Source: Octopus vulgaris (taxonomy: Eukaryota). From it: a stretch of DNA of 64,000 nt. Each line of letters starts with the position of its first letter. The stretch's first letter is position 1. Both the position numbers and the translations under genes were made by a program. This document shows, in pieces, positions 13,685-40,883 of the stretch. The DNA is taken from NCBI GenBank assembly GCA_951406725.2, contig OX597822.1, forward strand, positions 3,162,001 to 3,226,000, written 5' to 3'. The notes beneath the pieces were generated by a model that was given only the letters and a program-made list of their open reading frames with translations, did no database searches and was not told the DNA's origin.

Positions 13685-14757
13685 AGATAACTTAGATTGG
13701 TTTCGGCCATTATCGGCCCAGGCCATGGCTAACTCAATAGCACCACCTGGAAAAGTCGTTTAGTTAATTATTTTGGGACACCATGGACCACTCGAGCAGA
13801 GAGTTGTTGTTGGTTGAGACGTATCCAGGTGTAGGGTGTTTATCCGGTATTTCCTGGAGGAATTTGCCCAGGTACCGTTTGAAAGTTGTAGATGTTTTTT
13901 TACTTTAATTTCTTTTGGCATAACATAGAAACGTGCAGGACAATTTGCAGTGAAGAAATTGTGTCACAATCTTCTTATGTGATGTGATCTCGACCTTTGT
14001 AGGGAACGCATTGCACGGGGCCTAGTCTTGGGTAAATTGTAAACATAATGCCAATATCATTTGGATAATATTGGTGGAATATTTTCCACATGGTGCAAAT
14101 AATGTATCACTCACGGCGACTTTGCAGAGAATCGAGCTTCAGCTGTTTAAGTCGAGCACAATAATTAAGTCCCATCACGCCATTAATTCTTTGTGATTAA
14201 TCTTTGTGGCGCTTCGATCCTCATTATGTCTTGCTTTTTTTTGTAGAGAGACTACAATGGGTAGCAGTATTCGAGGTGGGGGCCTAGCGAATGTGAAGAA
14301 GTGAAGGATGATGGTTTCATGATCCCTAGATTGGAAAGTTCTGAGGATCCATGAGCACATTCTGTGGGCAACATCGACAGTTTTGTTGATGTACACACTC
14401 CAACTAAGGTTGCTGTCGGCAATTACACCTAAGTTTCTGATATCCGACGGTTCAAGTAGGTCTCCCGACGGTATTGTATGTGGTTGTTTGAGCGTACCCT
14501 CTCTCCCAAAGTGGATGACCTCAAATATTTCTTCCTCCAACTGCATATTGATTTTTTTTTTGTGCTCACTGGTTTCAAGGGAATCTGCAATGTCATTGAT
14601 ATAGACACTAAAAGAAAGTGGACCCAGCACAGTACTCTGCGGGACACCGCTGATGAATTTTACTGGTCTTGAGTGGATGCCATCAACCACAACATGGTGG
14701 GTCCTGTTTGTTAGGAAATACCTAATCTATTGAAGTAGGTTTCCATCGACTCCATCG
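13685..14757 (-). mobile_element. CR1/L2-like LINE, 5'-truncated (RT C-terminal part plus 3' UTR)
   Basis: SGVPQSTVLGPLSFSVYINDI; RNLGVIADSNLSWSVYINK...WILRTF. Confidence 0.9.
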
Positions 14758-14958: not shown

Positions 14959-15099
14959 AATATATATATATATATATATCACAATCAAGGAACGGCCATA
15001 ATAGGCCATTCACCCACTAGAAATAACAGCCAAAAGCTTTAACCGCAAAATAACATTAATACCGTAAACCAGGAGAAAATTGAAAAACTTTTACCCTGT

Positions 15100-15208
15100 A
15101 ATTTCTTAGACGATGCACCGTTTCATCTACCGTTTAATGGTAAACTAACCTGATTAAATTAAATCAAGCCAATCCACCATAGGCCCTTAGACTCATCAGT
15201 AAGAAATA
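15100..15208 (-). ncRNA. Type I hammerhead ribozyme (inverted copy)
   Basis: Reverse complement of 15722-15828. Confidence 0.8.
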
Positions 15209-15721
15209 GCCAAATCGGAACAGATATTTTTCACGAGGCATTCCTCTTGCTACCTCGGCAATATCTGACCTAAAATTTTCAAATCGTCGCTTTCGCGCCA
15301 AATTTATCGGCAGCAAATAAATATAAGCCACCGATTCCGTTACGGAACTAACCAGAAAATTCATAATTAATCAATATAGGGTGGCAAAAAATTTTGTAGA
15401 ATTCTTTTGCCACCAGCGGCCTAGTAGGAAAAAATTAAATAGTCATAAACGTAATAGTCATGTTGAACGTAAAAATGGTTTATGACTATTTAATTTTTTC
15501 CTACTAGGCCGCTGGTGGCAAAAGAATTCTACAAAATTTTTTTGCCACCCTATATTGATTAATTATGAATTTTCTGGTTAGTTCCGTAACGGAATCGGTG
15601 GCTTATATTTATTTGCTGCCGATAAATTTGGCGCGAGTGCGACGATTTGAAAATTTTAGGTCAGATATTGCCGAGGTAGCAAGAGGAATGCCTCGTGAAA
15701 AATATCTGTTCCGATTTGGCT

Positions 15722-15828
15722 ATTTCTTACTGATGAGTCTAAGGGCCTATGGTGGATTGGCTTGATTTAATTTAATCAGGTTAGTTTACCATTAAACGGT
15801 AGATGAAACGGTGCATCGTCTAAGAAAT
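15722..15828 (+). ncRNA. Type I hammerhead ribozyme with long stem II
   Basis: atttctta-CTGATGA-gtcta...tagat-GAAA-cggtgcatcg-TC-taagaaat: 8-bp stem I, canonical core, predicted cleavage after 15820. Confidence 0.88.
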
Positions 15829-16211
15829 TACAGGGTAAAATTTTTTCAATTTTCTCCTGGTTTACGGTATTAATGTTATTTTGCGGTTAAAGCTTTTGGC
15901 TGTTATTTCTAGTGGGTGAATGGCCTATTATGGCCGTTCCTTGATTGTGATGTTGAACGTAAAAATGGTTTATGACTATTTAATTTTTTCCTACTAGGCC
16001 GCTGGTGGCAAAAGAATTCTACAAAATTTTTTTGCCACCCTATATTGATTAATTATGAATTTTCTGGTTAGTTCCGTAACGGAATCGGTGGCTTATATTT
16101 ATTTGCTGCCGATAAATTTGGCGCGAGTGCGACGATTTGAAAATTTTAGGTCAGATATTGCCGAGGTAGCAAGAGGAATGCCTCGTGAAAAATATCTGTT
16201 CCGATTTGGCT

Positions 16212-16318
16212 ATTTCTTACTGATGAGTCTAAGGGCCTATGGTGGATTGGCTTGATTTAATTTAATCAGGTTAGTTTACCATTAAACGGTAGATGAAACG
16301 GTGCATCGTCTAAGAAAT
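16212..16318 (+). ncRNA. Type I hammerhead ribozyme (second tandem copy)
   Basis: Same as 15722-15828; predicted cleavage after 16310. Confidence 0.88.
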
Positions 16319-16666
16319 TACAGGGTAAAAGTTTTTCAATTTTCTCCTGGTTTACGGTATTAATGTTATTTTGCGGTTAAAGCTTTTGGCTGTTATTTCT
16401 AGTGGGTGAATGGCCTATTATGGCCGTTCCTTGATTGTGATGTTGAACGTAAAAATGGTTTATGACTATTTAATTTTTTCCTACTAGGCCGCTGGTGGCA
16501 AAAGAATTCTACAAAATTTTTTTGCCACCCTATATTGATTAATTATATATATATATATATATTAATCATGGATAAAATATTTATAAGATTTTAAAATGTA
16601 ACCAGTATGTAATGAACCATATACTTAATAATTAATACAAGTATATATAATTAATTAAATATGACA

Positions 16667-18549: not shown

Positions 18550-19940
18550 ATTTTTCATACGATCACATTATTTTTGTTTCATTTTCTTATTTTGGAGCTT
18601 ACTCTATACAATTGTTGTTAAATTCGTATCGATTTTGCCTTTCAAAAATAAGTTTCAATGAGAACCATAGTAGATACCTCATGCTATATGAATTCAAAGG
18701 GGGGTTCTCTGTAATTGAAGCATCGAGAAATATTTGTCCTATCATTGAAAATGAAGCTGTAAGTTTCGAAACGTATCACCGATGGTTTGGCCAGTTACGT
18801 GGGACCACTTTTCTCTTGTAGATTTTCCTCAATCTGGACGCCCAAATTCTTATTTCTTTATTGCCCACAAGGGGCTAAACATAGAGAGGACAAACAAGGA
18901 CAGACAAAGGGATTAAGTCGATTATATCGACCCCAGTGCGTAACTGGTACTTATTTAATCGACCCCGAAAGGATGAAAGGCAAAGTCGACCACGGCGGAA
19001 TTTGAACACAGAACGTAGCAGCAGACAAAATTCCTATTTCTATTTCTCTACTACCCACAAGGGGCTAAACACACTGAGGACAAACAAGGACAGACAAGGG
19101 TTATTTCGATTACATCGACCCCAGTGTGTAACTGGTACTTAATTTATCGACCCATAAAGGATGAAAGGCAAAGTCGACCTCGGCGGAATTTGAACTCAGA
19201 ACGTAACGGCAGACGAAATACGGCTACGCATTTCGCCCGGCGTGCTAACGTTTCTGCCAGCTCGCCGCTTTAAATTTGGACGCCCAAATTCTGTTAGTAA
19301 TTGACTGTTTGAAAAAACTAGTGAAAAATCCCTCAAATTTAAAGTTAACAACACACGAATTCGCAAAATAGTTCAATTCAAGTCACATTTTGATCATAGG
19401 AAAAAAAAAAAAACAATCATGAAGCAGGAAAATTTTCTGAACTTGGTCGTTGGATATCAATGAAAGGGTTGCCCTCTGCACATCATTGAAGAGTAGATTT
19501 GCTAACGATCCTTTCCTGGGTAAAATCCTCACAACTGATGTCAATGGATAGCACTCATCAAAACAGGATAAACCCTCACCAAACCAGAAGTACCCCCGGA
19601 GAAAGTTAAGCCCTGTGCCTGATGCGATTTGAAATGCGTTATCTACCACGAAGAGTTAAACCAAAGCGAAAAGGTTAATGAGAGGAAGTATTACCGTCAA
19701 ATTGGAAACATTGTACAAAATTGTGAAGTAGAGTGCAAATTATTGATCAACCGTAAAGGATTGTTGCTTTTACTCAATTGTGCAAGACCACATATTAATC
19801 AAGTAACGGAGAAAAAGATTATGGCACTAGATATGACAGATCTGGCACATACTCCTTACTCCCTTGACCTTGCTCCCTCTGATTATCCTCTTTTCATGTA
19901 ATTGCAACGTTATTTAGAGACATTTATATCCAATTATGTT
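18550..19940 (+). mobile_element. Decayed mariner transposon interrupted by a SINE dimer
   Basis: YLMLYEFKGG..EASRNIC; PFLGKILTTD; NCARPH; HTPYSLDLAPSDYPLF. Confidence 0.85.
18851..19272 (-). mobile_element. SINE family 1 dimer with target-site duplication
   Basis: TSD tggacgcccaaattct at 18835-18850 and 19277-19292. Confidence 0.9.
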
Positions 19941-20032: not shown

Positions 20033-20668
20033 TATTTCTTTACTACCCACAAGGGGCTAAACATAGAGGGGGCAAGCAGGGACAGACAAACGGATTAAGT
20101 CGATTATATCGACCCCAGTGCGTAACTGGTACTTAACTTATCGACCCCGAAAGGATAAAAAGCAAAGTTGACCTCCGCAGAATTTGAACTCAGGACGTAA
20201 CGGCAGACGAAATATCGCTAAGCATTTCACCCGGCGCGCTAACGTTTCTTATTTCTTTACTACCCACAATGGGGTAAACACAGAGAAGACAAACAAGGAC
20301 AGACAAACGGATTAGGTCGATTATATCGACCCCAGTGCGTAACTAGTACTTATTTAACCGACCCCGAAAGGATGAAAGGCAAAGTTGACCTCGGCGGAAT
20401 TTGAACTCACAACGTAACGACAGACGAAATACCGATTTCTTTATTACCCACAAGGGGCTACACATAGAGGGGACAAACAAGGACAGACATAGGTATTAAG
20501 TCGATTATATCGACCCCCAGTGCGTAACTGGTACTTATTTAATCGACCCCGAAATGATGAAAGGCAAAGTCGACCTCGGCGGAATTTGAACTCACAACGT
20601 AACGGCAGACGAAATACTGCAAAGCATTTCACTCGGCGTGCTAACGTTTCTGCCAGCTCGCCGCCCTT
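20033..20668 (-). mobile_element. SINE family 1 trimer
   Basis: One complete head and three tandem bodies. Confidence 0.9.
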
Positions 20669-35911: not shown

Positions 35912-36492
35912 GAAGGCGGCGAGCTAGCACAAACGTTAGCACGCCGGGCGAAATGCTTAGCGGTATTTCGTCTGTCTTTACGTTCTGAGTTCAAATTCCG
36001 CCGAGGTCGACTTTGCCTTTCATCCTTTCGGGGCCGATTAAATAAGTACCAGTTACGCACTGGGGTCGATATAGTCGACTTAATCCATTTGTCTGTCCTT
36101 GTTTGTCCCTTCTGTGTTTAGCACCTTGTGGGTAGTAAAGAAATAGCTATTTCGTCTGCCGCTAGGTTCTGAGTTCAAATTCCGTCGATGTCGACTTTGC
36201 CTTTCATTCTTTCGGGGTCGATTAAATAAGTACCAGTTACGCACTGGGGTCGATGTAATCGACTTAACCCGTTTGTCTATCCTTGTTTGTCCTCTCAGTG
36301 TTTAGCCCCTTGTGGGTAGTAAAGAAATAGGTATTTCGTCTGTCTGAGTTCAAATTCCGCCGAAGTCGACTTTGCCTTTCAACCTTTTCAGCGATGATAA
36401 ATTATGTAACAGTTGCGTACTAGGGTCGATCTAAACGACTGACACCCTACCCAAAAATTTCGGGCCTCGTGCTTAGAGTAAGAAAGAATATT
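35912..36492 (+). mobile_element. SINE family 1 trimer
   Basis: One head; bodies restart at ~36147 and ~36330. Confidence 0.9.
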
Positions 36493-39082: not shown

Positions 39083-39857
39083 TAAAACACATTGAGAGGC
39101 TTCCATCATAGGAATGCCTTGCGCTAGAAACAACAGTTAAAGTCTAAGCCACTAATTAGGGATAAATTCTCGAAGGGAATGAAAAATAAAAACATTTACC
39201 ATCTAATTCAATTGAATTAGATGGTAAATGTTCTTTCTAGCGCAAGGCATTCCTATGATGGAAGTCTCTTAATGTGTTTTAATGTACACTGTATTTTATA
39301 TGAATAATATATAGTCTTTTGACTAAATTTTTTGCGCTAGACTACTGGTAGTAAAAATTGCTATAATTTTTATTACCCTGATATTATTTATTATGTTTAA
39401 TGATTTCTGGTAAATTTGTTCGAAGTTTTTACCGGCATCCTCTCCGTTGCCGACAATAGACTGCGACTGCGCAGTGGATTTGAAAAAAATTAAAATGTAC
39501 AAGCAATGAGTTTACATGCGGAATCGATCTCGCTGTGTGTATATTTATTCTAAGGCTACCCGCTGAAGAAGACGACCTCAGTAAATTTTAATTTTACTGA
39601 TATAAGTCAGAAACCATGGTCCGGGAATTGAATTAGATGGTAAATGTTTTTTTACTTTTCATTCCCTTCGAGAATTTATTCCTAATTAGTGACTTGGACT
39701 TTAACTGTTGTTTCTAGCGCAAGGCATTCCTATGATGGAAGCCTCTTAATGTGTTTTAATGTACACGGTATTTTATATGAATAATATATAGTCTTTTGAC
39801 TAAATTTTTTGCGCTAGACCACTGGTAGTAAAAATTGCTATAATTTTTATTACCCTG

Positions 39858-39863
<6 letters not shown>
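39083..39863 (+). mobile_element. Retrozyme-like element, 477 bp unit, partial tandem with 5' inversion
   Basis: 39083-39212 is the reverse complement of 39626-39757; direct repeat 39235-39386 / 39712-39863; HHR at 39559-39625; ends in (TA)n. Confidence 0.85.
39559..39625 (+). ncRNA. Type I hammerhead ribozyme
   Basis: cccg-CTGAAGA-a-gac..tcagtaaa/tttactga..gtc-a-GAAA-ccatgg-TC-cggg; predicted cleavage after 39621. Confidence 0.78.
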
Positions 39864-39892
<29 letters not shown>

Positions 39893-40118
39893 GAAATATT
39901 AAAATTACTAAGTCTCTCTAAAAGAGAACAGCGGCAGCGTTCCCGGAAAATAATAGTTATCGCCATACTAATATGGCATTCTTATAAAAATAAGAATAAA
40001 GCTGTCCGCTTATTAGCTCCATGAGGCCATCGCCTTAAGTTAGCTATTTGATACACAAACTGTATCCATATAACCTTCGAACAAGGGAGGTCAGTCGCTC
40101 CACACTACTTGACCGGCA

Positions 40119-40160
40119 GCTACAGACGCGTTTCGGGGTATTGCCTCTTTTCAATGCAGC
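40119..40160 (-). ncRNA. Minimal type I hammerhead with U3-A8 core
   Basis: gctgca-TTGAAAA-gagg caata cccc-GAAA-cgcg-TC-tgtagc. Confidence 0.75.
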
Positions 40161-40480
40161 GTCGCCAGCCAGTAGGTGTCGCTTCCGACAATCTCTGTTC
40201 GATGGTTTTATTTACCTAGTTTCAGTGGAATACATCCACTTGTTTTCAATAATAGAAATATTAAAATTACTAAGTCTCTCTAAAAGAGAACAGCGGCAGC
40301 GTTCCCGGAAAATAATAGTTATCGCCATACTAATATGGCATTCTTATAAAAATAAGAATAAAGCTGTCCGCTTATTAGCTCCATGAGGCCATCGCCTTAA
40401 GTTAGCTATTTGATACACAAACTGTATCCATATAACCTTCGAACAAGGGAGGTCAGTCGCTCCACACTACTTGACCGGCA

Positions 40481-40522
40481 GCTACAGACGCGTTTCGGGG
40501 TATTGCCTCTTTTCAATGCAGC
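40481..40522 (-). ncRNA. Minimal type I hammerhead with U3-A8 core (copy 2)
   Basis: Same as 40119-40160. Confidence 0.75.
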
Positions 40523-40843
40523 GTCGCCAGCCAGTAGGTGTCGCTTCCGACAATCTCTGTTCGATGGTTTTATTTACCTAGTTTCAGTGGAATACATCCA
40601 CTTGTTTTCAATAATAGAAATATTAAAATTACTAAGTCTCTCTAAAAGAGAACAGCGGCAGCGTTCCCGGAAAATAATAGTTATCGCCATACTAATATGG
40701 CATTCTTATAAAAATAAGAATAAAGCTGTCCGCTTATTAGCTCCATGAGGCCATCGCCTTAAGTTAGCTATTTGATACACAAACTGTATCCATATAACCT
40801 TCGAACAAGGGAGGTCAGTCGCTCCACACTACTTGGCCGGCAG

Positions 40844-40879
40844 CTACAGACGCGTTTCAGGGTATTGCCCCTTTTCAAT

Positions 40880-40883
<4 letters not shown>
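40844..40883 (-). ncRNA. Minimal type I hammerhead with U3-A8 core (copy 3)
   Basis: ctaca-TTGAAAA-gggg caata ccct-GAAA-cgcg-TC-tgtag; substitutions keep the stems paired. Confidence 0.78.

Follow-up and report, generated by a model that had tools for sequence, protein, structure and literature searches.

A young hammerhead-bearing repeat of Octopus vulgaris, probably a non-LTR retrozyme, lies in (TA)n microsatellites as two arms with two fixed 3' ends

A young, non-coding repeat of the Octopus vulgaris genome, built of 490-bp units that each carry a hammerhead ribozyme, is inserted in (TA)n microsatellites as two arms with two fixed ends. We are highly confident that the element is a retrozyme, and consider the fuller account probable, in which a non-LTR retrozyme was copied from both sides of a single break by a Penelope-type reverse transcriptase (RT). 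Its copies have a conserved ribozyme anatomy, target TA runs, end 3' at one of two positions, begin at variable 5' positions and consist of near-identical units. The class is already known and this family is an additional member of it; the more informative features are the strict pairing of the two 3' sites and an excess of 5' ends just past the predicted ribozyme cut. The preliminary description of this DNA had named neither the class of the element nor its Penelope-type ends.

Structure of the element

In the window (the whole 64,000-nt stretch of DNA that was analysed) the insertion occupies positions 14979-16546 and comprises an inverted, 5'-truncated arm followed by 2.2 tandem units of 490 bp, both within (TA)n, with the target microsatellite visible at 14960-14979 on the left and 16547-16562 on the right. 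The tandem arm (15460-16546, + strand, GC 36.7%) is made of two 490-bp units and a 107-nt tail (16440-16546) bounded by two fixed 3' ends, termed E1 and E2. It has a period of 490, 2.2 copies and 99% identity, the tandem copies differing at one base (15841 T, 16331 G). Numbering the monomer from 15460 as position 1, the predicted cut falls after 361, E1 is position 490 and E2 is at about position 107 of the next unit; we infer that both are sites at which reverse transcription starts. The inverted arm (14979-15449, - strand) runs from monomer position 490 down to 19 and has E1 as its 3' end; over 474 bp, 14978-15450 is 99.4% identical to copy 2, with two substitutions and a 1-nt gap. The array and inverted arm of the preliminary description are thus confirmed, as is the recent date that it gave to the insertion, the copies being 99-100% identical to dispersed loci. 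The arms are separated by a 10-nt junction (15450-15459), of which nine bases match the reverse complement of monomer positions ~23-32; this is likely a templated insertion, probably made during end joining.

There is no stop-to-stop frame of at least 100 aa within 14978-16546. We rejected as coding a 66-aa ATG frame (15565-15765, and its repeats), which opens at the E2 end and closes within stem II of the ribozyme: of 128 full units, 75 have it at 66 aa and 29 at no more than 26 aa, and some subfamilies have not retained it.

Several other repeats lie in the window. Just left of the insertion, 14175-14726 (- strand) holds a degraded frame of 183 aa, which from its motifs we take to be a fragment of a LINE-type reverse transcriptase, and copies of a tandem 185-217-bp repeat, presumably a common SINE-like repeat, lie at 18851-19219, 20033-20617 and 35964-36440. 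An older relative of the element at 39083-39868 has a 477-bp period, a short inverted arm and a type I hammerhead core at 39563. In its TA tail sits a second young array (39887-40880, - strand), with a 362-bp period and 2.7 copies at 99% identity, placed between (TA)n and (AG)n; its hammerhead is minimal, having CGCG as stem III and the U3-A8 variant of the core, and fragments of the array occur at other TA runs.

The hammerhead ribozyme and its conservation

The two + strand copies of the type I hammerhead lie at 15722-15828 and 16212-16318, with CTGATGA at 15730 and 16220, GAAA at 15805 and 16295, and GUC ending at 15820 and 16310, so that cuts are predicted after C15820 and C16310. A third copy is on the inverted arm (15101-15207, - strand), its core starting at 15199 and its cut predicted after 15109 by arithmetic from the + strand copy. 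In copy 1 an 8-bp stem I (15722-15729 with 15821-15828) encloses CUGAUGA (15730-15736), basal stem II (15737-15741 with 15800-15804), GAAA (15805-15808) and stem III (15808-15811 with 15816-15819, closed by a UGCA loop). The canonical core and 8-bp stem I of the preliminary description are thus present, but stem II opens with a G-U pair, G10.1-U11.1, instead of G-C. The halves of the core are separated by 68 nt, which include a 19-bp extension of stem II (15749-15792) with a 6-nt AU loop. In a base count 15749-15767 paired with 15774-15792 at 19 of 19 positions, 13 of them Watson-Crick and six G-U, exactly as had been claimed.

The preliminary description had proposed folding as a check, in which the + strand far surpassed its shuffles. 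As + strand RNA, 15722-15828 reached -34.2 kcal/mol (z -4.2, with none of 200 shuffles as good), against -15.8 kcal/mol for the - strand (z -1.6, 15 of 200 shuffles as good). The predicted cut-to-cut monomer of 490 nt (15821-16310, + strand), a putative circle on the basis of sequence and folding, gave -141.6 kcal/mol as a circle (z -5.3 against 40 shuffles; - strand z -2.8). The minimum-energy fold of the ribozyme sequesters CUGAUGA, and the catalytic fold is weaker by about 4 kcal/mol (-30.0 against -34.2). The monomeric ribozyme is predicted not to fold correctly and to require a dimer. Stem III (15808-15819) is quasi-palindromic and is a putative double-hammerhead element, with a predicted energy of -17.5 kcal/mol as a 12-bp intermolecular duplex and -0.2 as a hairpin. 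All 45 positions of the Rfam Hammerhead_1 model (RF00163) aligned to the ribozyme, at 22 bits and an E-value of 0.0086. Because of the long stem II insertion this falls below the 34-bit gathering score, and a scan of the window with Rfam at the gathering threshold returned no matches.

Variation among copies of the family was surveyed at 11 core positions in 187 copies from 66 loci. Variants common to several loci occur only at N7 (T in 40, C in 12, A in eight and G in seven loci) and H17 (C in 34, A in 33), the positions that a hammerhead leaves free, and the other nine positions carry three single-locus changes in total. Basal stem II changes from A-U to G-C in 10 loci of the 66, and shows A-C in four, T-T in three and A-A in three. 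The window copy was also compared with 19 copies of a sister family (20 rows). There 94.8% of cells in the comparison are paired, against 26-48% in slid controls, and double-sided changes number three in stem I and one in stem III; the shuffle control in this comparison ignores relatedness, and a single row carries most of the changes between families. Since the shared core variants are limited to N7 and H17 and compensatory changes occur in stems I and III, comparison of the copies indicates that the type I hammerhead is under selection at the level of RNA. In the sister family CCGAUGA prevails, a U4C change of the core, which counts against our preferred explanation.

The preliminary description had also argued that the stem II extension is selected as RNA structure, and this stands in part: the stem is specific to the + strand and is conserved, yet perfection is not required of it. 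No variant common to at least three loci occurs at positions 296-328 in the 66 loci. Pair 294/329 is A-A in 30 of the 66 loci and T-T in four, and among 14 extension pairs tested in the sister comparison seven have one-side variants, one has a double-sided change and one is broken in 19 of 20 rows; it is because pair 294/329 is broken in 30 loci and the sister family breaks one of its 14 pairs that perfect pairing appears dispensable. Judged from these copies, the long stem is conserved with its G-U pairs included. In the third family a comparable internal loop is topped by a shorter extension. In stem III the loop changes from TGCA to TATA in eight loci with the palindrome kept, and the 12-bp duplex is retained in six of 11 haplotypes, the remaining five each being confined to one locus; stem III is palindromic in the sister and third families too.

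An origin of the long stem as a MITE-like inverted repeat or a DNA palindrome since decayed, beside a hammerhead core arisen by chance, we regard as exceedingly improbable. The sub-gathering Rfam score and the extension pair broken in 30 of 66 loci would fit such an origin. Yet the six G-U pairs are accompanied by no A-C on the + strand, for which decay blind to strand gives by arithmetic at most 1 in 64, the core varies where it is free to vary, the stems show compensatory changes, and the ends of the element fit no terminal inverted repeat.

Distribution in the genome

The unit has 1334 candidate hits in the 2.8-Gb genome, the best 40 at 99-100% identity. Exact junctions number at least 429 for E1 with (TA) and at least 703 for E2 with (TA) genome-wide, and reversed-pattern controls gave none. 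In the first 19 loci examined, arms begin 5' at varying positions, and their 3' ends, in TA runs, fall at 490 (E1) or at about 107 of the next unit (E2). Neither the insertion in the window nor 19 further loci contain an RT or GIY-YIG ORF between or inside the arms. A larger set of 74 loci on one contig, contig 1, was defined from junction lists, four entries being skipped as already covered; the copies in it are about 84% to 100% identical to the window unit, and arms reach 3522 bp. A TA junction was required for entry into the contig-1 set and not for the first 19-locus set, and in both the target is a (TA)n microsatellite.

The sister family is ~70% identical to the unit and has 2341 candidates, and a third relative has 3122, one of its copies lying at 39300-39868 of the window. 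By their sequences these families show what appear to be successive waves of one lineage. TA-targeting families are moreover found nested in one another's TA tails (L030, L036, L038, L089-L143), which yields clusters of retrozymes and Penelope-like 3' ends. The flanks of loci L030-L267 contain further, unrelated type I hammerheads with a long stem II and palindromic stem III, and a long stem II seems to be common among the repeats of this genome.

Pairing of the two 3' ends

Each arm ends at one of two fixed 3' ends, 107 nt apart, one per arm. Two back-to-back arms are present in 58 of the 74 contig-1 loci, the inverted arm being a by-product of integration. Among 59 arm pairs, 52 are E1 with E2 and seven have one unclassifiable end, with no case of E1 with E1 or E2 with E2; all 52 classifiable inverted pairs therefore join the two different ends. 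In the junction lists of contigs 1 and 2, a sample that overlaps the contig-1 set, 21 of 21 pairs are likewise E1 with E2. The loci were picked on one junction only, which left the partner end free. The 3' ends lie +129 and +236 from the cut here, and +141/+234 and +155/+247 in two sister families. In the empty-site check, no assembled contig bridged the left junction.

This arrangement is reminiscent of Penelope-like elements. In vitro, AT-rich DNA is nicked on both strands by a Penelope-like protein, whose RT begins cDNA at two internal sites lying at either limit of the genomic tail (PMC11167929). Inverted, 5'-truncated Penelope-like copies with a tail at one end and a (TA)n bias have been described in the accessible text of PMC8557442. 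Based on these observations we hold, with good confidence, that the two ends reflect priming at two sites in the Penelope manner.

5' ends and the nature of the template

From 138 arms we set aside eight lacking an E1 or E2 end and one at a locus edge, leaving 129; a set of 121, which also omits eight arms with 5' ends at positions 1-7, was used for the scan, the remapping, the AT control and the counts by approach. The 5' ends accumulate at positions 362-390, the 29 nt past the predicted cut (25 of 129 arms against 7.4 expected). The excess persists after remapping to subfamily copies (24 against 6.9), and none of 200 simulations of the scan was as strong. At E1 there is no second pile-up (7 against 8.6 expected). 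We infer run-off from cut RNA with some trimming, and think it moderately probable that some cut linear templates were used. Self-cleavage of the transcript is accordingly putative, from the conservation of the core and this pile-up of 5' ends.

The pile-up might instead be unrelated to cleavage, arising from microhomology at the A/T run 378-390 or from stalling of the RT at the hairpin 371-401, which we consider less likely than not. Many pile-up junctions are at 378-390, which is T-rich, self-complementary and offers microhomology; 11 of the 24 remapped ends lie there, and several are joins of a T run to an A run. The excess is also poorly replicated in young copies and sister families: among contig-1 copies it is slight where identity to the window unit is 95% or more (4 of 43, against 21 of 78 in older copies), and 4 of 43 and 5 of 42 ends in the sister families are within 29 nt of the cut, while a first, non-random young set had 7 of 31 at 362-390. 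Against this, 13 ends are at 362-377, where 3.6 are expected (6 against 3.4 at 346-361), other AT-rich positions are without excess (13 against 15.9), and so is the stronger stem II hairpin (4 against 7.1 in the bin 301-330). Furthermore, the excess is found mainly at the first approach to the cut (20 against 4.4, later 5 against 2.5), and unpaired arms show it too (3 against 0.3).

A cut linear monomer allows just 129 or 236 nt of cDNA. The cut is crossed by 80 of the 129 arms, at least twice by 30 and seven times by one, and because of this most templates would have been circles or uncut multimers. Likely the templates were a mix of these with cut linear RNA. The preliminary description had predicted release of a 490-nt monomer, and this is plausible, but most integrated arms read through the cut. 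We somewhat favour the origin of long arms by rolling-circle synthesis on a monomer circle.

The divergence of units bears on the template as well, being 0.75% within an arm, 0.99% between arms and 5.3% between loci. In many arrays 14-26 differences from the window unit are fixed, and segregating sites are few or absent. Low divergence within insertions, together with such fixed differences, favours a bottleneck of one unit, as in rolling-circle synthesis. Of the 152 copies that have a sibling, 75 find their closest match in the same locus and 34 elsewhere, with a tie in 43. Rare variants shared within a locus number 41, of which 31 occur in only some copies, 12 of these coming from L225, a locus that holds two separate insertions. 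Not all arrays are homogeneous: ABAB patterns occur in L233 (850-2831), L256 (1874-3727) and the + arm of L199 (2418-4318), a period-3 variant in L202 (283-3804), and mixed alleles in L035, L042, L043, L047 and L048. It is possible that ABAB and period-3 arms came from dimer or trimer circular templates; the ABAB or mixed minority could come from errors of assembly, from exchange at a later stage, or from templates that were dimer circles or mixed linear RNAs.

Two other accounts of the arrays keep the same element. In one, two-site priming also operates and the template is always linear, namely read-through transcripts, left uncut or cut in part, of source arrays that are themselves homogeneous, with no circle ever copied. 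Its merits are that 5' ends gathered just past the cut are what linear cut RNA should give, that a mixed source array could be copied into mixed or ABAB arrays, and that in vitro the principal substrate is unprocessed RNA (PMC11167929). Its weakness is that linear copying with 5' truncation should only shorten arrays, whereas multi-unit arrays are present in several subfamilies; moreover, variants fixed across both arms (nine of 10 fully shared rare variants; L030, L043, L046) imply a one-unit bottleneck. We judge it doubtful that the template was always linear. In the other account insertions begin as at most one unit and tandem units arise later by unequal crossing-over or slippage. Local amplification has indeed been proposed for retrozyme arrays in the accessible part of 10.64898/2026.07.22.740005, and ABAB patterns fit duplication of a two-unit block. 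Arrays 98-100% identical to the window unit nevertheless already reach six units per arm, both arms can be multimeric, and the rate of stops is steady past the first cut (72 against 67.8 expected outside 362-390), as in continuous synthesis. Such later growth is therefore improbable in our estimation, and we retain the mixed templates proposed above.

Affinities with retrozymes and Penelope-like elements

Of the features that define retrozymes, those legible in the sequence are all found here: a hammerhead in each unit, a length of 490 bp, a GC content of 36.7% (under 45-50%), a lack of coding capacity, dispersed multiple copies and a self-paired monomer. In the available portions of PMC7229834 and 10.64898/2026.07.22.740005, metazoan non-LTR retrozymes are similarly low in GC, with a type I hammerhead in each of their tandem, non-coding units a few hundred bp long, are predicted to form highly self-paired circles, and co-occur with Penelope-like elements. 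The unit of 490 nt exceeds the 170-400 nt given in the former and is inside the 51-972 bp of the latter. The 68 nt between the core halves contrast with the canonical 4-bp helix II seen in those parts of the literature. A link between retrozymes and Penelope-like elements was proposed there from co-occurrence and similarity to pLTR sequences; we found no pLTR sequence link in the 90 loci sampled here from several families, whereas one is present in 24 of 57 Xenopus families. As far as the accessible text of the two sources extends, inverted arms, two fixed ends and 5'-end positions are not reported for retrozymes.

Dimeric hammerheads of newt, axolotl and Penelope-like elements share with this ribozyme a weak palindromic helix III and predicted pairing between copies, as described in the available parts of PMC4209133 and PMC7229834. 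Helix III here has 4 bp and a 4-nt loop against their usual 1-2 bp, and unlike them, on the same sources, helix II has a long G-U-rich extension. The accessible portion of a review (PMC7761336) has nothing on E1/E2 pairing or 5'-end footprints, and the main text of the octopus genome repeat annotation (PMC13282606), in the part available, makes no mention of ribozymes or retrozymes. We found no retrozyme paper that reports such footprints, and subscription papers and supplements could hold them.

Penelope-like elements with GIY-YIG domains, in the accessible parts of PMC8557442 and PMC11167929, resemble the family in their partial tandems, inverted 5'-truncated copy, tail at one end, two internal starts of reverse transcription, (TA)n or AT-rich targets and hammerheads near 3' ends. 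They encode RT and GIY-YIG, whereas the window element has neither; the tail is 107 nt here against the 30-40 nt noted in the available text of PMC8557442; and the hammerhead is full, against the minimal U3-A8 variants of the autonomous Penelope-like elements of this genome. The element is not an autonomous Penelope-like element, yet integrates like one.

These relationships point to a Penelope-like partner. Intact elements with RT and GIY-YIG are abundant in the genome, several of them ending in (TA)n with minimal hammerheads, and candidates include a very young family (18203) and a second family (30372), along with those of a GIY-YIG family search. None of the 40+20+30 loci picked by Penelope-like protein or GIY-YIG was an autonomous element with a 3' region homologous to the monomer. 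By blastn, the first and third partner sets had no monomer match in their own 3' regions, the few hits being nested retrozyme copies. The very young Penelope-like family just named (L088:418-4887 and others) has a 4.4-kb unit, a U3-A8 hammerhead and a tail of ~34 nt; in every long copy inspected its RT and GIY-YIG are split between overlapping frames of 446 and 784 aa, which suggests a frameshift or an intron.

The unit occurs in assembled contigs of four runs presumed to be RNA, with both TA-joined ends in two of the runs; these contigs carry no information on ends, strand, level or editing. Relative to the larger presumed-RNA run the element is no better represented than flanking repeats, which speaks neither for nor against expression, and the main A>G difference in the RNA-like contigs (16239) is a genomic variant in eight of 66 loci.

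Proposed mode of transposition

We propose that tandem transcripts would be cleaved at a slow rate, probably by a double hammerhead in which the palindromic stem III joins two copies, and that the monomers would likely be ligated into circles, as shown for other retrozymes. A Penelope-like GIY-YIG/RT protein would then nick both strands of a (TA)n run and cDNA would start internally, E1 being used at one end of the break and E2 at the other. Where the template was a cut linear RNA, synthesis would end by run-off close to the cut; on a circle or an uncut multimer it would continue, for up to seven units. The two cDNA ends would finally be joined head to head. Taken further, the family might constitute a fossil record of a dimeric Penelope-type RT, whose subunits obligately start at different sites at a (TA)n break, leave linear RNA at the hammerhead cut, and travel repeatedly round circles of monomers, or at times dimers, so as to write arrays directly; we offer this stronger version tentatively, giving it somewhat less than even weight.

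If true, it would provide genomic evidence that cleavage takes place in vivo and that, in an animal, target-primed reverse transcription can use a circle as template, and the long G-U stem II would be a damper of cleavage or a handle for protein binding. The in vitro Penelope assay already in use could take the 490-nt unit as a defined substrate, and the family's countable footprints, namely E1 with E2 pairing, the 5'-end excess and the homogeneity of arrays, bear on how retrozyme arrays are made and on whether the ribozyme cuts during transposition.
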